A stretch of 64,000 bases of DNA, from the IMG/VR virus record IMGVR_UViG_3300032053_000012; one strand, written 5' to 3'. The DNA comes from an uncultured virus (IMG/VR IMGVR_UViG_3300032053_000012). Its lineage: Duplodnaviria; Heunggongvirae; Uroviricota; Caudoviricetes. Positions 4,381 through 47,065 of this stretch are shown piece after piece; position 1 is the first letter of the stretch, and the number at the start of each line of letters is the position of its first letter. Under the pieces are notes generated by a model, which saw nothing but the letters and a program-made list of their open reading frames with translations, was not told the DNA's origin and did no database searches. A program made the position numbers and the translations under genes.

Positions 4381-5118
4381 CTACTGTCCTCTCGATAGGT
4401 TCGCGTTCGCCGCCCTGCAGCGGACGAGCAGCCAGTCACGCTCCTCGACGCCTCGCTGCGCCATCTGTCGGCCGAGATCGGTGAGCCTGACGCCGTGTTC
4501 GTGGACGCCGGGCTCTGGCGGGATCGACTCGGCATAACCCAGTCTCTGCAGGTACAACCACGTGATCTGGTCGAAGCGTCCGAGGTCGGTGAGACTGAGT
4601 CTCGAACCACGACGGGTCGAGAAGAATCCATCGCCTCCCTTCGAGTGGAGGAGTTCGAGCGCCTGCGACGGCTTGCCTTCTTTCACCTGCGCACCGACGG
4701 TGAACGCTCGGGCTCGACCATAATCGGTCAGGACGACCTCGTCGGGACCGCCCGCCACGCCGAAGACCCGACGCGTCGTCCAGAGCAACGGATCCGTGTT
4801 AGGATGATCACCTCCGGCCGCGTTGATCGTCGTCGTCGACGTCCTCGCGAGCGCGAGGTCGACCAGCTCGGCCACGTCGACGCCGTACCAGCCCTTCAGG
4901 TCGCGCTCGACCTCGGCGCGCGGCGCGGACCCGTAGCCCATCCACGACAGACGGAAGTACGTCAGGTGTCCGCGCTTCGACAAGCCGAAGTGGAACGGCG
5001 CGCGCTCGCCCGGCTTCGCGAGCTTTTGCATGTGGTCGTTCATCCACGCGACCATCTGCGGGGAGACGGGGACCGGCTCCCTCGGGACCCTCCAGCCGCG
5101 CGGCACATTGCGGGGCAT
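4381..5118 (-). CDS. hypothetical protein
   Basis: 245-aa ORF, tightly packed. Confidence 0.6.
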   Translation of the reverse strand: MPRNVPRGWRVPREPVPVSPQMVAWMNDHMQKLAKPGERAPFHFGLSKRGHLTYFRLSWMGYGSAPRAEVERDLKGWYGVDVAELVDLALARTSTTTINAAGGDHPNTDPLLWTTRRVFGVAGGPDEVVLTDYGRARAFTVGAQVKEGKPSQALELLHSKGGDGFFSTRRGSRLSLTDLGRFDQITWLYLQRLGYAESIPPEPGVHEHGVRLTDLGRQMAQRGVEERDWLLVRCRAANANLSRGQ

Positions 5119-6144
5119 CTACGCGATCCTCCTTCCCGTGGCGTTGTCGAACCACACCGCGACGAGCGGACCGTACCCGGGCACCTTGTAGAGCGCCTTC
5201 GTCACGTCGTCGTTCGTCTGGTAGAACGACCGCGGGTCGGACGCGACGAGCTCGCCCGTCGTCGTCTTCTTGAGCAGACTTCCAGGCTGCCAGAGCGTGC
5301 TCCCGCCGCGCATCGCCGCCGCTGTCTTGTCGCCCTTGTAGAGCGCGATCGTCTTCTTCGTGACTCCCGTGACGGCCGTGAACCCGCCGTGCTGGTCGAG
5401 GACGTCTATGCGCTGGTTTGGCCTCCCGCCGATCAGCACGTCGAGCGTGCTCCACGCCTCGCGCCTCTGCCGGTAGGTCGCGGCGATCATCTCGTCGCGC
5501 GCGCGCTTGTGCTGCTCCGCGATCTGGTTGTGCCTGGCGCCGATCGCGAACGCTCGGTCCGTGTCTGCGCGGTCGACGCTCACGAGGGGAGGCAGGGACT
5601 GCCCCGTGCGGCCCGGGGGTGGCCAGAACGCGGTGTGGAACAGCGTCGCGGCCTCGCCGTGCGCCGTCTCGGCCGCCTTGTGCGCCTCGGGGTCGCTGTT
5701 CGTCGGGGCGTTGGCGACCCGGCTCAGGTGCTCCGCCCTCGCGGCGGCGGCCTCCGCGCGCGCCCACGACTTTTCTGGCGTCCACCCTTCGCTCGTCGCG
5801 CCCGCGTAGTTCTTCCACGGGCCGGGTCGCGTGGCGTAACTCTGCACCGACGGATGCTCGCGGGGGACGTTCGACGGGTCGTGGGGTCGCGAGAGGATCC
5901 TCCGCGCTGCCTGCCTCGGCGACAGCCCTTCTTGGTAGAGCGCGCCCAGGATCTCGTACCGACGCGGTCCGTAGTCGGACACGTCGTGCGGCGCCGCGTG
6001 GCGATGGCGCGCCACCGACGGGTCCGCGCGGTGCTGGATCTCCATGAGGTTCTGGTAGAACGCTCCCACCCAGCGCATGAACATGCCGGGCAGCATCCCC
6101 GTGTCCTCGCGGCGCGTCGGCGCGGCTCTCGTCTTGGTCGTCAT
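5119..6144 (-). CDS. hypothetical protein
   Basis: 341-aa ORF with purine-rich RBS. Confidence 0.65.
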   Translation of the reverse strand: MTTKTRAAPTRREDTGMLPGMFMRWVGAFYQNLMEIQHRADPSVARHRHAAPHDVSDYGPRRYEILGALYQEGLSPRQAARRILSRPHDPSNVPREHPSVQSYATRPGPWKNYAGATSEGWTPEKSWARAEAAAARAEHLSRVANAPTNSDPEAHKAAETAHGEAATLFHTAFWPPPGRTGQSLPPLVSVDRADTDRAFAIGARHNQIAEQHKRARDEMIAATYRQRREAWSTLDVLIGGRPNQRIDVLDQHGGFTAVTGVTKKTIALYKGDKTAAAMRGGSTLWQPGSLLKKTTTGELVASDPRSFYQTNDDVTKALYKVPGYGPLVAVWFDNATGRRIA

Positions 6145-6180: not shown

Positions 6181-6927
6181 CTATCCGCTCGGCAGCCGCG
6201 GCGCGAGGGTCCGGTCCCCCGTCGCCGTCGCCATCCGGTAGATCGCCGCCCGGTACGTCAACTGGTTCGCCACCCCGCGCAGGTGCTCCACGAGGTCCCC
6301 CACCGTGATGTACCCCTTCTTCTCCCGGTCGAACCCGCTGTTCCTCGAGTACGCCTTCCCGTCCACGCCCTCCCGGTAGAGCACCGCCCCGAGGTCCGCG
6401 CTCATCCTCGCCGGCGCGAAGTTCGCCGCGTACACCACCCCCGCGTGCCCGTACGCCTTCCCCGCCCTCGTCCACCCGATCGCGTTGAACAGCCGCTCGA
6501 CCAGCGGGATCTGCCGCGACACCGACCACGTCGGGATCGTCGCGCGCTGCTCCTCGGTCAGCCCCAGCGCGTCGTTCGCAGCCCTGGTGATCTGGTTCAG
6601 CCCGGCCGCGTACGGATAGCCGCTCTTGTCCGTCGTGGCCTTGCCGTCCTCGTCCACCCGGTAGGCCGCCCACGGCCTCAGTCCGCTCTCGCTCGCGAGC
6701 ACCAGCAGCAGGTCGGCCGGGTTCATGCGCAGTCGCTTGGCGACCGCGTAGAGCTGCGCGAAGTCCGCGTCTGTCCAGTCCGGCGTGGACGCCCGCGGAT
6801 CCGGGCCGCTGGGCGACGGCGTCCCTCCCCCGCCGTTCTTCGGCAGTTCGGCGCCGCTCGCGGACCGCACGAGCATGACCACCGTCACGCCGAAGAGTCC
6901 CACGACCATCGCGCCGATCCAGCCCAT
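6181..6927 (-). CDS. membrane-anchored lytic transglycosylase (SLT/lysozyme-like)
   Basis: N-terminal TM helix; catalytic-like ASESG, AGLNQI, YAANFAP and C-terminal N.GFD..K.GYITVGDL. Confidence 0.75.
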   Translation of the reverse strand: MGWIGAMVVGLFGVTVVMLVRSASGAELPKNGGGGTPSPSGPDPRASTPDWTDADFAQLYAVAKRLRMNPADLLLVLASESGLRPWAAYRVDEDGKATTDKSGYPYAAGLNQITRAANDALGLTEEQRATIPTWSVSRQIPLVERLFNAIGWTRAGKAYGHAGVVYAANFAPARMSADLGAVLYREGVDGKAYSRNSGFDREKKGYITVGDLVEHLRGVANQLTYRAAIYRMATATGDRTLAPRLPSG

Positions 6928-39722: not shown

Positions 39723-40259
39723 TTAGAACGTCCCCTTGTACCTCGACGGGATCAGCCTGCCCGTGCCCTTCGACGACGCGCGCATCAGGACTACGTCGCG
39801 CCTCTGCTCCGGCCCGACGCTGACGTGGATCGGTCGGTCGGCGCCGTAGTAGTAGAGCCGGTCGAACGGCGCGTGCTCGATCACCCAGCGCGCCAGGTCG
39901 TCGCCCCCGACGCCCGGCACGAGGAAGTCGACCGCGACCCCCCCTCGACCGCAGACGAGGCCGCCGCTCCGACCGCGCTCGCAGCCCGCGTGCTGGTCGA
40001 GCTCGGGGGCGATCCGACCCTTGATCCTGCGCGTCAGCCGCGGCGACGCGAACCCGTACGTCAGCCGCACCGCGCCGAAGGCGTCGACCACGGGGTCGAG
40101 CAGCAGTCGGCAGACCTCGCCCAGCGCCTCGAGCGTGCCGGGATCCCTCGGCAGGTTGTCGATCGGGCACGTCGTCGCCTCGCGGTGGTACGTCTCCCCG
40201 CACTCGACGAGGTCGCGGTAGACGAAGTGTCGACCGCAGGGCGCGTCGAGGTCGATCAC
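39723..40259 (-). CDS. peptidase M15-like zinc peptidase
   Basis: LLDPV..FG...TYGF, DQHAG, AVDF, FDRLYYY and IHVS (His-Asp-His). Confidence 0.7.
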   Translation of the reverse strand: MIDLDAPCGRHFVYRDLVECGETYHREATTCPIDNLPRDPGTLEALGEVCRLLLDPVVDAFGAVRLTYGFASPRLTRRIKGRIAPELDQHAGCERGRSGGLVCGRGGVAVDFLVPGVGGDDLARWVIEHAPFDRLYYYGADRPIHVSVGPEQRRDVVLMRASSKGTGRLIPSRYKGTF

Positions 40260-40274
40260 TGGATCCGCTCCTCT

Positions 40275-40616
40275 CTATGACTCGTATTCGCTCGCGGTCG
40301 CCCTGGCGACGTGGTCGAGGGCCGCGGAGAGCCGATTGAAGTACGGGTCGTTCCTCGCGCGCTCCGCGTTCCTCGCGGCGTCGGCGAGTAGGAGAGCCAG
40401 GTTGTGCACCCCCATCGTCGACACCGCGTGGCTGACCAGCCTCGTCCAGTAGTGGATCGCGTCGGCCTCGATCTCCTCCATCCCGTCGGGTGTGCGGGAA
40501 GGGTACGCCAGCTCGCGATTGAGCTCGTCGCGTCGCAGGCGCGCCGTGGTCGCGTCGATCCGTCGCTGTCGCGGGAGGTCGTCCTTGAGGGCCTTGCGGG
40601 GCTTGTGGGCTGGCAT
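40275..40616 (-). CDS. hypothetical protein
   Basis: 113-aa ORF with RBS. Confidence 0.55.
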   Translation of the reverse strand: MPAHKPRKALKDDLPRQRRIDATTARLRRDELNRELAYPSRTPDGMEEIEADAIHYWTRLVSHAVSTMGVHNLALLLADAARNAERARNDPYFNRLSAALDHVARATASEYES

Positions 40617-40907
40617 CGTCGCGCTTCCTTCCGAGGGTGTGGCGTGGTGTGTCGCGTCTAACCCCGGAGCCGCCTCGGGACGTACGCCTCGAGGTCCCCG
40701 ACGGTCCGCCTCACCTGCTCGATCGAGTCGTCGAGGCTGCCTAAGAACCTCAACTGCGGCGGTCCGATCTCGCGGTTTGTGAACCTGACGTTCGCCGCCT
40801 TCTCCGCCTCGGTCAGCAGCGCGAGCGCGGCTCGCAGCGGTCGCTCGAACGACGGCGTCCTCGACTTGACCGGCTTCGACCTCGACTTGACTGGCATGGG
40901 AGAGATT

Positions 40908-41828
40908 CTACTCGCGGTCCTTCTGCGGTTCAATCGGCGGCGGTTCAACCACCGGCGGCTCGCACATGCCCCACCTCATGCACCCGCCCGTCGGCGGCTC
41001 CGCGAGCAGTTGCAGCTGCCGGCCCCCGTGCGACGTGCGTGACCACTCCACCACCGCGCGGATCCCTACGTCGCCCACGTGGCGCGCGCGGAAAAAAGTC
41101 GCGGGCATGTCCTTGAAGCGGCCCGGCTCGGCGAGGTTCGCCGCGGCGCGCGCGGCGTCCGTCTCTGCCTCGAGCGCGGCGATCTCGTCGATGCGCCACG
41201 GGGCGCCGTCGGCCGTCAGCGCCACCTCGTGCTTCTGCGCGTAGATGCACGGATAACACCCGACTCGGTCGTGCCCCCGCAGGTAGAGCGGGTTCACGGG
41301 CACCGCGTGTCGGTGGTGGATCGCCAGCACCTCGGCGATCGTCCACGCGAGCAGCGGGCGCCATACCCAGCCGCCCCACGACCGCGCCGCGTCCTCCTCG
41401 AGCTCGAACACCGGCATGCGCGCGCGCGCCTCGGACTCCTCCGCGCGGATCCCCATCGCGGAGACCGTCTCGATCCCCCGCGCGACCAGGACGTCGTGGT
41501 ACGCGCGCAGCGGCTCGATCTTCAGCTCGCGCGTGCACCACCGCTGCAGCCGGGACGGGAACCCCGCTCGGTTCCTCACGCGCGCCACCATGCCGCCCTC
41601 GACCCCCACCACGTCGATCGTGATGCCCAGCCCGCTCCGCAGCGCGTCGAGGTACGCGTACGTCTCGGGCGCCTCCCACTGCGTGTCCGCGAACACGTAG
41701 CGCGCGGGCACCTCGGCCTCGCGGAGCGCGAGGATCAGCGCCGTGCTGTCCTTGCCGCCCGACACGCTCGCGACCACGGAGAGCTCGCCGCTGCGGACCG
41801 CCTCTGGCACGGAGATGCGGTTCGTCAT
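40908..41828 (-). CDS. PAPS reductase-family protein, copy 2
   Basis: SVSGGKDS, FADT.WE, RWCT..LKIEP, GIRAEES..RA and NPLY..G..RVGCYPC. Confidence 0.88.
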   Translation of the reverse strand: MTNRISVPEAVRSGELSVVASVSGGKDSTALILALREAEVPARYVFADTQWEAPETYAYLDALRSGLGITIDVVGVEGGMVARVRNRAGFPSRLQRWCTRELKIEPLRAYHDVLVARGIETVSAMGIRAEESEARARMPVFELEEDAARSWGGWVWRPLLAWTIAEVLAIHHRHAVPVNPLYLRGHDRVGCYPCIYAQKHEVALTADGAPWRIDEIAALEAETDAARAAANLAEPGRFKDMPATFFRARHVGDVGIRAVVEWSRTSHGGRQLQLLAEPPTGGCMRWGMCEPPVVEPPPIEPQKDRE

Positions 41829-42796
41829 CGGTCGTCTCCCTCGTCCTCTTCGTCCTCTTCGTCTTCGTTTCCCTCGCTCCCCGCCTTCGTCGGCGGCTCG
41901 CACATGCCCCACCGCATGCACCCGCCGGTGGGCGGCTCCGCGAGGAGTTGTAGCTGCCGGCCCCCGCGCGACGTGCGCGACCACTCGACCACCGACCGGA
42001 TCCCCATCGGCTCCACCCCGTGCTTCGTCTGGAAGAACGTCGCGTGCTGCGGGAACGCGTAGCGCGGGTCCTCGTTGCCCGCGGCGACGTGTTCCTCGTT
42101 GCGCGCGACGCGCAGCGCGGCACACTCGGACTCGATCGCGGCGATCTCGTCGACGCGCTGCGGCGCGTGGTCCCCGATGAGCCTGATCTCGTTCTTGCTC
42201 GAGAAGATGCACGGGTAGCACCCCACTCGGTCGTGCCCGCGCAGGTAGAGCGGGTTGAGCGGCACGTCGTGCCGGTGGTGAATGGCGATCACGTCGGCGA
42301 TCGTCCACGCGAGCAGCGGGCGCCACAGCCAGCCGCCCCATGACCGGTAGCCGCTCTCCTCGAGCTCGAAGGCCGGCATGCGCGCGCGAGCTTCTGACTC
42401 CTCGGCGCGGATCCCCATCGCCGCGACCGTCTCGATCCCCCGCGCGACCAGGGCGTCGTGGTAGGCGCGCTGCGGCTCGACCTTCAGCTCGGTCGTGCAC
42501 CAGCGACCCAGCCGCGTCGGGAACCCGGCGCGTTTTCGGATCTTGCCGACCATCCCGCCCTCGACGCCGACGACGTCGATCGCGATCCCGAGGATCCTTC
42601 TCAGGGTGTCAAGGTAGGCGTAGGTCTCGGGCGCCTCCCACCCGGTGTCCGCGAACACGTAGCGTGACGGCACCTCGGCCTCGCGGAGCGCGAGGATCAA
42701 CGCGGTAGAGTCCTTGCCGCCCGACACGCTCGCGACCACGGAGAGCTCGCCGCTGCGGACCGCCTCGGGCACGGAGATGCGCTGGATCATCGTCAT
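41825..42796 (-). CDS. PAPS reductase-family protein, copy 1
   Basis: same motifs; AAGGAG RBS. Confidence 0.88.
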   Translation of the reverse strand: MTMIQRISVPEAVRSGELSVVASVSGGKDSTALILALREAEVPSRYVFADTGWEAPETYAYLDTLRRILGIAIDVVGVEGGMVGKIRKRAGFPTRLGRWCTTELKVEPQRAYHDALVARGIETVAAMGIRAEESEARARMPAFELEESGYRSWGGWLWRPLLAWTIADVIAIHHRHDVPLNPLYLRGHDRVGCYPCIFSSKNEIRLIGDHAPQRVDEIAAIESECAALRVARNEEHVAAGNEDPRYAFPQHATFFQTKHGVEPMGIRSVVEWSRTSRGGRQLQLLAEPPTGGCMRWGMCEPPTKAGSEGNEDEEDEEDEGDDR

Positions 42797-42817
42797 TCGT
42801 CGTTCTCTCCTTTGAAG

Positions 42818-42840
42818 GTCGAGATGGCTGCGCGGAGCCA
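42818..42840. repeat. inverted anti-repeat of the CRISPR repeat
   Basis: GTCGAGATGGCTGCGCGGAGCCA is the exact reverse complement of repeat nt 14-36 (for example 42873-42895). Confidence 0.95.
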
Positions 42841-42859
42841 TGACCATCGGTGGTAGTCA

Positions 42860-43482
42860 GTCGCGGCACTCGTGGCTCCGCGCAGCCATCTCGACTCGTG
42901 GTGCCGACCCGGCTCTTGCCCTCGGGCATCGTCGGAGTCGCGGCACTCGTGGCTCCGCGCAGCCATCTCGACAACGATGACACGCGCCTGCACTCGAACC
43001 CAGAAGACAGTCCGTCGCGGCACTCGTGGCTCCGCGCAGCCATCTCGACGAGGCCCCCCTCTCGCGCGCAGCGCGCGCCCTTACTTGTCGCGGCACTCGT
43101 GGCTCCGCGCAGCCATCTCGACCCGCTCTCGTCCTTCTCGTTCCCGTCTAGATAGCTCGCGCGGACAGTCGCGGCACTCGTGGCTCCGCGCAGCCATCTC
43201 GACCGCTCCCTCGCATGGAGCTTCGTCGCGGCACTCGTGGCTCCGCGCAGCCATCTCGACCGGTTCCTTCGAGATCCGCTACCCAGCGTCATGCGACTCG
43301 TCGCGGCACTCGTGGCTCCGCGCAGCCATCTCGACGCGGTCGTAGCGCCCGTAGTCGAGCATGATCTCGTCGTCGCGGCACTCGTGGCTCCGCGCAGCCA
43401 TCTCGACTGCGCACGGGCGCCTTGCCGCCCGCGCCCTTCTCGGCATGTCGCGGCACTCGTGGCTCCGCGCAGCCATCTCGAC
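42860..43482. CRISPR. CRISPR array, 9 identical 36-bp repeats and 8 spacers
   Basis: GTCGCGGCACTCGTGGCTCCGCGCAGCCATCTCGAC at 42860, 42937, 43014, 43087, 43168, 43225, 43300, 43372 and 43447; spacers of 41, 41, 37, 45, 21, 39, 36 and 39 bp; internal TGGCT/AGCCA hairpin. Confidence 0.98.
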
Positions 43483-43489
43483 CCGTCCA

Positions 43490-45147
43490 TCATACACCCT
43501 GCGGATCCGCGGGGTTGGCGTCCGGTTCGCGAGCGATCCCCTGCAGCGCGATCTTGTCGGCCTTCGCCTTCTTCCGCCGCGCCCACGCATTGTCTCCGTT
43601 GTCGCTGGATTCACTGTTCTTTCTCACCTTGCGAGCGGTCACGGCTGGATCGCCGGCACCGAACCGCTCGATCGCGAGCGCCGCCCAGCCGCGCGCGTCC
43701 TTGTCCTCATCTGCATGTGGGTCACCAAGTCGCACCCACGGGGCCTCGTACGCGCTCGCTCCACCGTCGTACGCGGCGTCGATCGCGCCGACGAGCGAGG
43801 ACGGCGACGAGAGGAATCGCAGGTCGCTCTCGGCCCCGAACCGCGCCTCGCGCGAGTAGTCCCGGCGCGGCACGATCGCGTGCCGGTAGCTGCGCGCCCA
43901 CGTGGCCGCGAGCACGTGGTAGTAGTCGTTCCGCGACCGCACGGCCTGGCCGCGCGAGTCGGCCTCGTAGCGCCACAGGTGGTCGTCGCGCATCTCCCAC
44001 GCCTGGACCCGGTCGTAGGACTCGCGCGCGGCGTCGCACCGCTCGTCGCGCCAGCGTCGCGCGAGACGATACATGCGCTCGGGACTCTTCCAGAGGTGCA
44101 TCGTCTGGCACGCGTCGATTAGCCACACGGGCAGAGAATCCCTCGACTCCACGAGGAGACGCCGCACGTCCTCGCGCGCCGCGTTGCTCAGCGTGTCGCG
44201 TACCGCACGGATGTCTGCCGCCTTCCGCATCGCGCCGACGACGCGCGTCGGAAGCACCACGTCGGAAGTCACGCCCTTGTCGTCTCGAGTCGTCGCGCAC
44301 ACGAACGCGCCGTCGCTCGCGCGCTCGTACCACGCGGGCTCGACCGCGAGGACGCCCACGATCGACGTGTCGAGCGTGCGCGCTGGACGCTCCACGTTCA
44401 CCGTGATCTCGACCGACCACGCGTAGGACCGACCCTCGCGACGGCGGGAGAGACGCACCCACTTCCACTGCGCGGCGTCCGGGATCTGGCGGTGCAGGAT
44501 CGCGCGGACGCGCGTCCAGACGGGATCGCGTCCGGCAGTCCCGCTCGACCCGATTCGGATCCAGAGGTCCGCGTACTCCGTAACGCGTCCGCTCTTGTGT
44601 GGACCTTGCGGTCGCCGCGGTCGAGCCGCACACGCGTGTCCTGGCCCGTGCGCACGGCGCTCGTCGCGACCCCGCGCTGTAGCTGCACGCTGACCTGTCC
44701 CTTCTCGACCCAGCGGCGGAACCTCGGGAGCGCGGGCGTCACCGCGTCGTCCTCGTAGAGCGGCATCGCCCGCTGCTGCTGCGCAGATGCCTCCACCGTG
44801 AGGTAGTTGCCCCAGTAGGTCTGGGTCAATGCGCGCGCGTCGCGGCGGATCGCCTCGTCCAGTGCGGCGATCCTCGCGAGCTCGTCTGGCGCCGCCGCGC
44901 GTGCAGCCCTGCGCGCCTGACGCAGCGCCGTGACGGCGGCCTTGCGCGTGCTCTTCGTCGCAGCGCGCACGAGCTCAGCGGCCTCGCGCGCCTCGGGCGT
45001 GTCGTCCACGGCATGCAGGGCCGCGCGCCGCCCACGCTCGATCGCGGTGTGGTCGTTCGCGTAGTCGTGCGCGAGGCGCATCTGCGCCATGACCAGGTCG
45101 AGGTCGTCGAGCGGGCCGCCGCAGCAGCCGAAGCGATAGACGATCAC
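43490..45147 (-). CDS. cas12m: Cas12m (type V-M/V-U1)-like effector, about 552 aa, split by a 1-nt frameshift near 44600-44625
   Basis: QMRLAHDY, YWGNYLTV, RFRRW..GQVSVQLQR, then in the shifted frame SGRVT..LWIRIGS, LHRQIP, WKSPERMYRLARRW, AW..RD.HLW..E...R.QA...R.DYY..LA. These follow, in order, blocks I recall from Cas12m; the gene abuts the array. Confidence 0.8.
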
Positions 45148-45247
45148 CTCACTCCTCCTCTCGTAGCTGTGGAGGTGCGAACCCTCGCGACGGGATCTTC
45201 AGGACGGCTTGTCTTCTTTGTCGTCATCGTCTGCTCCTTCTTGGTTC

Positions 45248-45598
45248 TCACGTCACAAACCAGCCCTTCGCCGGGTCGTGGTTCTCCTCGTCGTGCGTCG
45301 ACAGGTCCGCGGAGTAGAGGCCGGAGCACCGGAGACACTGCGACCACGCGCCGTGCTCGTCGTAGACCTTGAGCCCGCGGATCACGATCGCGTTCTTGAG
45401 CGTCGGGTGCCGCTCGACCGCGCCGCACGTCGGGCAGCGAAGCTCGCCATGCGCGGCGCGCCAGACGCCGCGCCTCACGACCGGTCTTACGACCGGCACG
45501 ACCGGCACGACCGGCACTTCGGTCTTTCGACGTAGTTCCTCGCGCAGCGCGTCGCGCTCGGCCGCGAGCGCGCGGATCAGGTAGGCCGCGAGCAGCAC
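45248..45598 (-). CDS. hypothetical zinc-ribbon protein
   Basis: CPTCG...CLRCSG; start uncertain. Confidence 0.45.
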   Translation of the reverse strand: MLLAAYLIRALAAERDALREELRRKTEVPVVPVVPVVRPVVRRGVWRAAHGELRCPTCGAVERHPTLKNAIVIRGLKVYDEHGAWSQCLRCSGLYSADLSTHDEENHDPAKGWFVT

Positions 45599-45680
45599 GC
45601 CGTCCTCTGGGTCGTCTCGCTCGCCTCGCGACCCTCCTTGACTACGAGCATGTGTGTTTTCTCCTTCCTGATAATCTTCG

Positions 45681-46172
45681 TCACGGCTTCGGACGCATGA
45701 GAGACGTGACGTCGAGGCTCGCGTCCGCCATGATCTCCGCGACGCGCTCGCGAGACAGCGCAGGCTCGCGCGTCCAGCGCGCGTCCTCCTCCGCGCCCTT
45801 GACGAGCAGTTCCGTGATCATGCTCGAGAGGGGCGCGTACTCGCTCAGGATCGGACCGTCGCACGCACAGCCGTAGCGCACGTGCCTGTATCTGCTGTCG
45901 GTGTGCGACGAGTGCTGCTCGGGACCGTACACGATGACCCCCGCTGGGTCGCCGCAGGAGCACCGGTGCGCGGCCTCCTCGAAGAACCGGAGCGCGCGCA
46001 CGTACGTCTTGCCCTCCGTCTCCCGGATCGAGAGTATCGCGCGCAGTTCGGACCCGATCGACCGCCTCCGCGCTCGTGTCCTCTCGTTGCCAGTCTCTCG
46101 GACGCCGACGTACGCGCTGCGGAGCGCGAGTCTCCGGATGGCCTCCGTCGTCTCCGCGCTCAAGACGCTCAC
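45681..46172 (-). CDS. hypothetical protein
   Basis: 163-aa coupled ORF. Confidence 0.5.
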   Translation of the reverse strand: MSVLSAETTEAIRRLALRSAYVGVRETGNERTRARRRSIGSELRAILSIRETEGKTYVRALRFFEEAAHRCSCGDPAGVIVYGPEQHSSHTDSRYRHVRYGCACDGPILSEYAPLSSMITELLVKGAEEDARWTREPALSRERVAEIMADASLDVTSLMRPKP

Positions 46173-46597
46173 CTCGACACCTGCGCGGTCGTCCTCGCGG
46201 TCGCCCTCGTGCCCCTCGCTCTGTCGGCCCTCGTCTCGGCGCGGACCCTCGCGACGGTCTCGTCCGTCACCGGCCCGAACGCCGCCCCCGGGTCGACCCC
46301 CGACCCGCCGCAGCGCCGGCAGCCCCCCGCGCTCGCGACGAGCTGGTCGAGGTCGACGCCCAGCAGCTCGGCCACCACGCGCAGCGTCGCCTCGCTGAAC
46401 CTCCGGCCGCCCCGCTCGCAGTCGGAGACGTGCTGCACCGAGAGCTCGGCCGCCTTCGCCGCCCGGCGCAGCGGCACCTCGGCTGCCATTCGTAGCTCGC
46501 GCACCAGCGCGCCGATCCGGTCCTCGAGCCGGTCGCGCGCCGCCCGGTCGTGCAGCGTGGACTTGAACGTTTTGGTCGTCGTCGTCGTCTTGGTCAT
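46169..46597 (-). CDS. XRE-family HTH regulator
   Basis: IGALVRELR...LRRAAKAAELSVQHVSDCERG...LRVVAELLGV, then CRRCGGSG. Confidence 0.8.
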   Translation of the reverse strand: MTKTTTTTKTFKSTLHDRAARDRLEDRIGALVRELRMAAEVPLRRAAKAAELSVQHVSDCERGGRRFSEATLRVVAELLGVDLDQLVASAGGCRRCGGSGVDPGAAFGPVTDETVARVRAETRADRARGTRATARTTAQVSR

Positions 46598-46821
46598 CGC
46601 TTCCTCCGCCTGTTGATCGTCTCGCCCGCGCAGTCCGAGACGGCGTCGAGCATCGCGCGCACCCGGCGGATCAGCGTCGAGCAGACCTCGCCCTGCCGAC
46701 CGCCCATCGGCAGTGCCACGCGCTCTCCGCCGGGCATCACGTAGACGTGGTGGTCGCCGTCCCTGCGCACGAGCTCGGCGCCCGCGCGGCGCATCTCGCG
46801 CAGCAGTTCGCGCGCCCTCAC
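46594..46821 (-). CDS. HicA-like protein
   Basis: RELLREMRRAGAELVRRDGDHHVY...RVALP...EV; 75 aa. Confidence 0.65.
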   Translation of the reverse strand: MRARELLREMRRAGAELVRRDGDHHVYVMPGGERVALPMGGRQGEVCSTLIRRVRAMLDAVSDCAGETINRRRKR

Positions 46822-47065
46822 GGCGCGCCTCCGTTCGTCGGCGCGGTTCGCCGCGCGACGTGCGCGCGCAGTGCCTCGCGCGCCGCGCGCATGGTGCGGT
46901 GGTGTCCCTCGGGCACGCGCTCGTCGAGGCAGCACCCGTGGACCGGGTCGACGACCGAGACGAACCACGGCGTGCCGCTCGTCCCGACCGAGCCGCCGTC
47001 GCGCACCGGCGCCTCGCGCTCGAGCACGTACTCGACGCCGTCGATCCGCTCGATCCTGCGGCTGG

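Follow-up and report, generated by a model that had tools for sequence, protein, structure and literature searches.

A near-exact inverted copy of the repeat follows the last repeat of a phage Cas12m array and may mask it

Introduction

Extraneous crRNAs from a spacer-less end repeat are a recognised burden of CRISPR arrays, for which repeat mutation, leader-repeat hairpins, terminators and guide hairpins are known remedies. The locus described here raises the question of what becomes of a terminal repeat that is fully intact and is followed, after a short linker, by a long inverted copy of itself (the anti-repeat) just ahead of the next gene. It lies in a stretch of 64,000 nucleotides from an uncultured virus (IMG/VR record IMGVR_UViG_3300032053_000012), the whole of which is called the window below. 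The window is 70.8% G+C and carries nearly all of its likely genes on the minus strand. It looks like phage DNA, with PHROG matches to DNA methyltransferases, a primase/helicase, an exonuclease V/Dda-like helicase and a baseplate hub; a blastn search of 42000-46000 against cultured phages returned no match. A preliminary description, made from the sequence alone, had offered three options for the anti-repeat: a cis lock that hides the last repeat, a tracrRNA- or scoutRNA-like element, and, should the array be read in the plus direction, a leader-repeat stem.

The anti-repeat and its surroundings

The features of the locus are as follows.

40908..41831, minus strand: PAPS-reductase-domain gene copy 2, tandem paralogue of copy 1 (PF01507, E 2e-31; the in-frame piece was searched, and the start codon lies a few bases inside it)
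41825..42796, minus strand: PAPS-reductase-domain gene copy 1 (PF01507, E 2e-29; phrog_424)
42794..42812, minus strand: ribosome-binding site (RBS) and start of PAPS-reductase copy 1 (AAGGAG 42812-42807, ATG 42796-42794), beginning 5 nt after the anti-repeat
42818..42843, minus strand: anti-repeat, inverted copy of repeat positions 1-26 (25/26 matching, 23 perfect)
42844..42859, minus strand: linker from terminal repeat to anti-repeat, 16 nt
42860..42895, minus strand: terminal (ninth) repeat, same as the other eight; positions 1-26 pair with the anti-repeat
42860..43483, minus strand: CRISPR array of nine identical 36-nt repeats and eight spacers
43490..45147, minus strand: cas12m-like gene, with its stop 6 nt before the first repeat; frameshifted in the window

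The preliminary description had placed 23 complementary base pairs at 19 bp from the outermost repeat. The sequence at 42818-42895 is as described, and the same feature can be drawn as 26 nt at a distance of 16 nt. The arms of the inverted repeat (42818-42843 and 42870-42895) are 26 nt each, 96% complementary and 26 nt apart, and the perfect part of the complementarity is 23 contiguous nt, for a repeat of 36 nt. The sole mismatch is the T at 42841, a G.U in plus-strand RNA and a C.A in minus-strand RNA. Complementarity ends exactly at the 5' boundary of the repeat and takes in 26 of its 36 positions. When the window was searched for the 26-mer with up to 3 mismatches, 10 sites were obtained, namely the nine repeats and the anti-repeat, and none in 100 shuffles. 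The anti-repeat is 25/26 complementary to all nine repeats, on the strand able to pair with a crRNA.

Other parts of the earlier account of this segment also hold. The terminal repeat had been called non-degenerate, and the ninth repeat equals the other eight letter for letter. The AAGGAG of the PAPS-reductase gene does lie close by on the minus strand, 5 nt past the anti-repeat, where the sequence continues as CTTCA, AAGGAG, 10 nt and the ATG at 42796. The statement that this is not a normal terminator, for want of a U-tract, is likewise borne out: in a rho-independent terminator test a stem was present, but it encloses a loop region of 26 nt and is followed by CUUCAAAGG in place of a U-tract, and a scan for terminator-like sites gave none on the minus strand here.

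Linker and anti-repeat together form a 42-nt trailer, which is spacer-sized ('S9'). Two other origins were tried and rejected. A decayed direct repeat does not fit the anti-repeat, as its flanks outside the quasi-palindromic hairpin match the repeat only in the inverted sense. A spacer captured from a rival array does not fit either: the reverse complement of 'S9' departs from the repeat after position 26 and has no pseudoknot partner, and thus falls short of a complete repeat variant. A target search with the linker found 12 exact 16-mer matches in viral contigs, none of which reached past 16 nt, consistent with chance. The true spacers measure 39, 36, 39, 21, 45, 37, 41 and 41 nt; spacer 4 (43204-43224) is thus only 21 nt long, the others being 36-45 nt. 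The first 20 nt of S1-S9 found no match in the rest of the window at up to 4 mismatches, except for one 4-mismatch match for S6.

On the downstream side, an ATG in the linker (42847, minus strand) is in frame with the PAPS-reductase gene, and no stop interrupts the reading across the anti-repeat (42847-42797). It would add a 17-residue extension, MVMAPRSHLDLQRRERR, and a gene caller could choose it. The RBS and the start of the paralogue favour 42796 as the probable start. The tandem PAPS-reductase genes (40908-42796) are 79-91% identical in DNA sequence with a period of 962 nt, and copy 1 has an acidic tail at its end and a stop that overlaps the start of copy 2.

The effector gene and its alleles

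The intact form of the cas12m-like gene product is P0001 (551 aa, locus L001), which is 100% identical over the 361-aa C-terminal part present in the window. Searches of P0001 against the PDB matched 23vw_A, 'CRISPR-associated DNA-binding protein Cas12m' (E 1.1e-26), and 8pm4_A (E 3.2e-6), and by this homology the effector is a Cas12m relative. Pfam gave no model match for the two ORF fragments of the window, and NCBIfam none for P0001 and P0008. The HMMER matches of P0001 to both solved Cas12m structures stop near residues 425-438 of 551. At residues ~262-272 the clade has AVEPAW, compared with AIDLGW in 23vw_A and a family consensus of AIAVExxW, and the RuvC site may be further degenerated in the P0001 clade.

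In the window allele, an extra CA near 44596 (44590-44600) turns CACA into CACACA and shifts the frame. A contig of run X2 (depth 85) is frameshifted in the same manner, and L001/P0001 and a contig of run X5 are intact; both alleles exist in nature. As a type V-M locus, the window thus presents a Cas12m-homologous effector and a 36-nt repeat with a stem and a 3'-end pseudoknot followed by the guide, and lacks an intact effector gene. The background claim that Cas12m does not need a tracrRNA agrees with the available text of PMC11013384, where Cas12m RNPs hold a single 50-60-nt crRNA and the RNA bound to eight Cas12m orthologues is reported without repeat-complementary RNA.

crRNA sense and the order of the transcript

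The strand on which the array is read was approached through the repeats of the related loci. An alignment of 19 distinct 36-nt repeat variants was evaluated against a model with a 5-bp hairpin and a 5-bp pseudoknot from the hairpin loop to the 3' end of the repeat. The model pairs 88% of cells, 0 of 500 shuffles did as well and no slid register came close; within the pseudoknot helix every cell (100%) is paired, and 4 of the 5 base pairs show compensatory changes. This architecture agrees, bar a one-position register difference, with the Cas12m2 scaffold as given in PMC10442227, in which the pseudoknot with the 3' end lies next to the guide, the 5' end is disordered and cleavage falls upstream of the scaffold. 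Furthermore, arrays in related loci typically lie directly downstream of the cas12m-like gene, on the strand of the gene. Since gene order in relatives and pseudoknot covariation point the same way, the crRNA sense is assigned to the minus strand, which gives the order cas12m, array, last repeat, 16 nt, anti-repeat, RBS and the two PAPS-reductase genes.

A sigma-70-type consensus scan of 41500-45600 gave promoter-like sites on neither strand, and it reported no terminator-like site for the minus strand. The genes stand head-to-tail on the minus strand, with 6 nt from the cas12m stop to the first repeat and 5 nt from the anti-repeat to the RBS, and for this reason cas12m, the array and the two PAPS-reductase genes are most likely read as one transcript.

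Predicted RNA structure

Folding of both strands, which the preliminary description had proposed as a check, predicts strong structures in a 121-nt context on the plus strand (-65 kcal/mol, z -5.9) as well as on the minus strand (-60.1 kcal/mol, z -5.7). The 78-nt element of repeat, linker and anti-repeat folds on the minus strand at a predicted -54.5 kcal/mol (z -8.5), with 0 of 200 shuffles as good, and the repeat by itself at -11.1 kcal/mol. The predicted duplex of 23-26 bp covers the 5' flank of the repeat, its hairpin and the loop strand of the pseudoknot. By prediction, therefore, the outermost repeat is caught in pairing with its flank and loses its functional fold (-54.5 versus -11.1 kcal/mol), as expected of a flank-repeat hairpin.

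The linker had been described as self-complementary (TGAC...GTCA). These letters are present, but the hairpin they form (-3.4 kcal/mol) was equalled by 33 of 200 shuffles, and its candidacy as a second lock, acting on the guide, was rejected as not above chance. When 286 nt were folded, the anti-repeat was paired with the closest repeat in the centroid, but with an identical repeat farther away in the minimum-energy structure. Thermodynamics alone thus does not pick the paired repeat; closeness during transcription would favour the ninth. A search of 40000-47000 against Rfam at E up to 1 gave no match.

Assembly support and sibling contigs

Read support had been named beforehand as something on which the element would stand or fall. 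L005, a separate metagenome contig, matches the window at 99.85% identity across 4.8 kb: its nine repeats are the same, its spacers differ by one SNP, and its trailer does not differ at all. A Logan contig of run X1 spans the junction (42737-42887) without differences, and another of run X5 spans it with 42737-42859 joined to a repeat, the array being collapsed. The junction between anti-repeat and repeat is not an assembly artefact, because L005 and runs X1 and X5 carry it unchanged. Logan contigs of 4 runs cover the array in pieces only, and one of them reduces it to a single repeat. There were 24 runs listed with the stretch, with no RNA run among them. The carriers of the element are all sediment metagenomes of 2019-2020 and may stem from one sampling campaign, so that they attest reproducibility and not phylogenetic depth.

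All spacers are common to three sibling contigs, and the SNPs fall in spacer 5. With no spacer turnover, there is no sign of an active, evolving array. Separately, just upstream of cas12m, a segment of ~600 nt (window 45613-46205 versus L001 2917-3535) remains unaligned in the otherwise 99% identical sibling contig L001, and by its sequence it is either replaced or highly diverged.

Comparison with related loci

A search of homologous loci for a conserved, covarying anti-repeat had also been suggested. We fetched 87 related loci, in 46 of which a first array script found an array-like repeat chain. In a consensus-based scan of 30 loci and the window, each with its own repeat consensus and an ungapped score of at least 13 outside the repeats, an anti-repeat was found in the window and L005 only; 17 of the other loci in that scan retain more than 200 nt of trailer, two of the 17 being one contig. 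Additionally, a consensus-free scan of all 87 loci for inverted repeats (arms of at least 18 nt, at least 88% complementary, loop up to 400) gave array-linked pairs in the window and L005 only, with a few other matches away from arrays. When the duplex energy of the terminal repeat with 60 nt of trailer was compared with 200 dinucleotide shuffles, z was -8.4 in the window lineage, and the 16 other non-redundant arrays had a mean of -0.12, a median of 0.10 and a minimum of -2.05. Among viral contigs, the exact repeat core had 0 matches, and three patterns of repeat core, gap and inverted core had 0, 1 and 3 matches, none of them beside an array.

A conserved anti-repeat is therefore absent from the other related loci by both the 87-locus scan and the 16-array z-scores. 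Such absence had been named as part of what would speak against a function, and the anti-repeat was indeed found in one lineage only (the window, L005 and the runs with the element). Conservation beyond the expectation from scrambled flanks, which marks flank-repeat hairpins, is likewise not seen, with z around 0 in the 16 arrays and no array-linked pair in other loci. The nearest relative with an array end (L003) has 67% protein identity, and there is no intermediate divergence at which compensatory change could be tested.

The relatives differ instead in the state of the terminal repeat itself. Their array ends are as follows.

L003, L017, L032, L035, L037, L062, L078: mutated terminal repeats
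L058, ~4880-4920: 3'-truncated terminal copy, positions 1-25
L077, ~6420-6480: 3'-truncated terminal copy, positions 1-17
L085/L086, ~6420-6470 and ~5985-6030: 3'-truncated terminal copy, about 9 nt (~1-9), by eye
L033, L034, L042, L047, L075: apparently intact last repeat without an anti-repeat (5/16 relatives)

Disabled terminal copies, either degenerate or 3'-truncated, thus occur in about 11 of the 16 relatives with complete array ends, and a neutralised terminal repeat is accordingly the usual state in the family. The five intact terminal repeats without an anti-repeat show that masking is not obligatory. Several disabled end copies abut the RBS of the next gene (L003, L077, L085, L086), and operon-embedded arrays seem usual in this phage family. 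The truncated end copies of L058, L077 and L085/L086 run directly into the RBS and start codon of that gene.

Some other features of the related loci were recorded. L006 (3201-6540; 63% protein identity) and L007 (3774-6490; 58%) have odd arrays, with a repeat core of ~30 nt every 40-65 nt, spacers of just ~10-30 nt and additional repeat clusters upstream of the gene as well as downstream. In L034 (~5876-5915) an imperfect inverted repeat (GCTCGAGAC / GTCGCGAGC) lies in the trailer after the intact terminal repeat, just before AAGGAG, and by its position it may be a guide-sequestering hairpin of the type II-C kind. The contig of L050 begins (1-90) with a 44-nt near-perfect palindrome (42/44) with a 2-nt centre, which looks like an assembly fold-back of the contig end, unrelated to the array.

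A cis lock on the terminal repeat and its alternatives

A cis lock is physically plausible and is our best mechanistic reading of this anatomy. A single minus-strand transcript would present the last repeat, 16 nt and then an inverted copy of the first 26 nt of the repeat. Repeat and anti-repeat would zip into a duplex of 23-26 bp that is predicted to be ~43 kcal/mol more stable than the nested fold of the repeat itself, burying the 5' flank (the Cas12m pre-crRNA cut site), both hairpin strands and the loop bases needed for the pseudoknot with the 3' end. If the duplex outcompetes Cas12m, the paired ninth repeat would be unable to form the scaffold, and Cas12m could not recognise or cut it. 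No 'extraneous' crRNA with the 5' UTR of the next gene as guide would then be made, and Cas12m would be kept from sitting on, or cutting, the message just before the PAPS-reductase RBS. What relatives achieve through a mutated or truncated terminal repeat, the window lineage would achieve with a perfect repeat that is masked.

That the trailer anti-repeat is a selected lock of this kind is a tentative conclusion, to which we give slightly less than an even chance. It fits the orientation of the minus-strand transcript and the predicted duplex, but stands without conservation. Several further points weigh against it. The cas12m allele of the window is frameshifted, and in such a variant there may be no protein to lock out; Cas12m could bind the ninth repeat before the anti-repeat is transcribed; and the lone mismatch is a C.A on the proposed RNA strand. 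The element is also confined to one lineage with a static array, and in the minimum-energy fold of the longer fragment the anti-repeat pairs with a distant repeat.

Much of the same evidence would suit a neutral rearrangement scar, which is quite possible. The anti-repeat most likely arose by local inverted duplication, also if it serves as a lock, and a one-off event of that kind (for example, a replication template switch aided by the quasi-palindrome of the repeat, or aberrant recombination) could leave an RNA that still folds while nothing selects for the fold. Absence from all other related loci examined, an array that is static across three sibling contigs with ordinary SNPs inside spacers, and the copying of just 26 of 36 repeat positions are what a scar would leave, and the broken cas12m in one common allele (depth 85, run X2) suggests relaxed selection on the locus. 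A scar does not account as readily for a copy that stops exactly at the 5' boundary of the repeat, spans precisely the parts required for Cas12m recognition, keeps 25 of 26 positions intact and is located where relatives have disabled terminal repeats. Moreover, on reading the sequence, neither microhomology at the anti-repeat junctions nor a simple one-step path from the surrounding sequence was found. Given the non-conservation, the static array and the broken allele, the scar is nearly as likely as the selected lock, and the two stay close.

Long perfect duplexes are substrates of RNase III, and the stem could belong to the processing or stability of the operon RNA with no part in locking out Cas12m, as an RNase III site that parts the array RNA from the PAPS-reductase message, as a 5' or 3' stabilising stem-loop, or as a terminator or attenuator without a U-tract. 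A long, perfect, GC-rich stem does stand exactly at the junction of array and next RBS, the genes are tightly packed one way, and no sigma-70-type promoter-like site precedes the PAPS-reductase gene. We consider this unlikely, since any stem would serve and a repeat copy would be unnecessary, relatives put the next RBS directly after the array without such a stem, and the intrinsic-terminator pattern failed on the U-tract, the 26-nt loop and the lack of a minus-strand terminator-like site. A tracrRNA- or scoutRNA-like helper, that is, a separate small RNA pairing with every repeat for crRNA maturation or Cas12m loading, would explain why all nine repeats are matched at 25/26 positions on the correct strand, and a long near-perfect repeat complement encoded beside the array is also what a tracrRNA-type anti-repeat looks like. 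Signs of a separate gene that has a promoter and a terminator of its own and is conserved together with the effector were not found: no other related locus examined has an anti-repeat, no promoter-like or minus-strand terminator-like site appeared in what was a consensus scan only, no Rfam family matched, and no more than 5 nt separate the anti-repeat from the RBS of a coding gene. Cas12m effectors manage without a tracrRNA, to judge from the RNA bound to eight orthologues in the available text of PMC11013384, and pairing would destroy the repeat's own covarying hairpin-pseudoknot scaffold instead of building one, which leaves this second option of the preliminary description very improbable. 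Its third option, a leader-repeat stem of a plus-strand array as in types II-A and VI-B, gains something from the mismatch becoming G.U and from the slightly stronger fold (-65 versus -60.1 kcal/mol). It is nevertheless rejected because the crRNA sense is minus, and we give it almost no weight: the scaffold with a pseudoknot to the 3' end beside the guide exists in the minus sense only, cas12m and nearly all other genes lie on the minus strand, and arrays of relatives follow the gene on its strand.

Comparison with known systems

A close likeness to the proposed cis lock is found in leader-repeat hairpins, which block extraneous crRNAs in type VI-B, related Cas13 subtypes and II-A (Migur et al. 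2026, PMC13187072; for II-A, Liao et al. 2022 as cited there). As described in the available text of that paper, sequence flanking the array anneals to the single end repeat from which a crRNA without a spacer would arise. Because this pairing competes with the functional fold of the repeat, the effector can neither bind nor process it. The published hairpins are leader elements, placed ahead of the first repeat, that serve guide-repeat crRNAs and are conserved in many systems. The lock proposed here belongs to a repeat-guide type V-M array and sits in the trailer, past the last repeat; in place of a partial complement it has a 26-nt inverted copy that is nearly exact, and it occurs in one lineage.

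Cas12a (type V-A) faces the same problem with the same crRNA configuration, the last repeat plus downstream sequence. The terminal repeat is reported as mutated in 11 of 14 native systems, and the intact one gives a functional extraneous crRNA (Liao et al. 2019, PMC6610086). Relatives of the present locus also have mutated or truncated copies; in the window, by contrast, the terminal repeat is unmutated and the proposed inactivation would act by RNA pairing, not by sequence decay. Terminal repeats are described as the most mutated repeats across subtypes (PMC12839519). In type II-C, the answers to extraneous crRNAs include an upstream terminator, a guide-sequestering hairpin and repeat mutation (Feussner et al. 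2025, PMC12080349), which indicates that differing local RNA structures beside the extra repeat can do the job. The II-C structures sequester the guide or stop transcription, whereas here the repeat itself would be sequestered and the linker hairpin is not above chance. In the available text of the papers on extraneous crRNAs and terminal repeats, we found no account of a type V array whose last repeat is masked by an anti-repeat in its trailer.

Significance

The case for the cis lock rests on one environmental lineage, with cas12m broken in this window. A wider claim would be that trailer-side or internal anti-repeats are a recurrent, selected device of phage Cas12m arrays that masks a perfect terminal repeat in cis within an operon; we hold this to be rather unlikely. 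Such a device could also couple the fate of the downstream PAPS-reductase message to the level of Cas12m, because Cas12m and the anti-repeat would compete for the same repeat during transcription. If the lock is real, synthetic Cas12m arrays could be closed simply on the same principle, with no errant guide made at their end. For repeat-guide (type V) systems, a trailer anti-repeat that masks an intact terminal repeat would then be an additional solution to the extraneous crRNA, and it would show how a phage can retain an array within a tightly packed operon.
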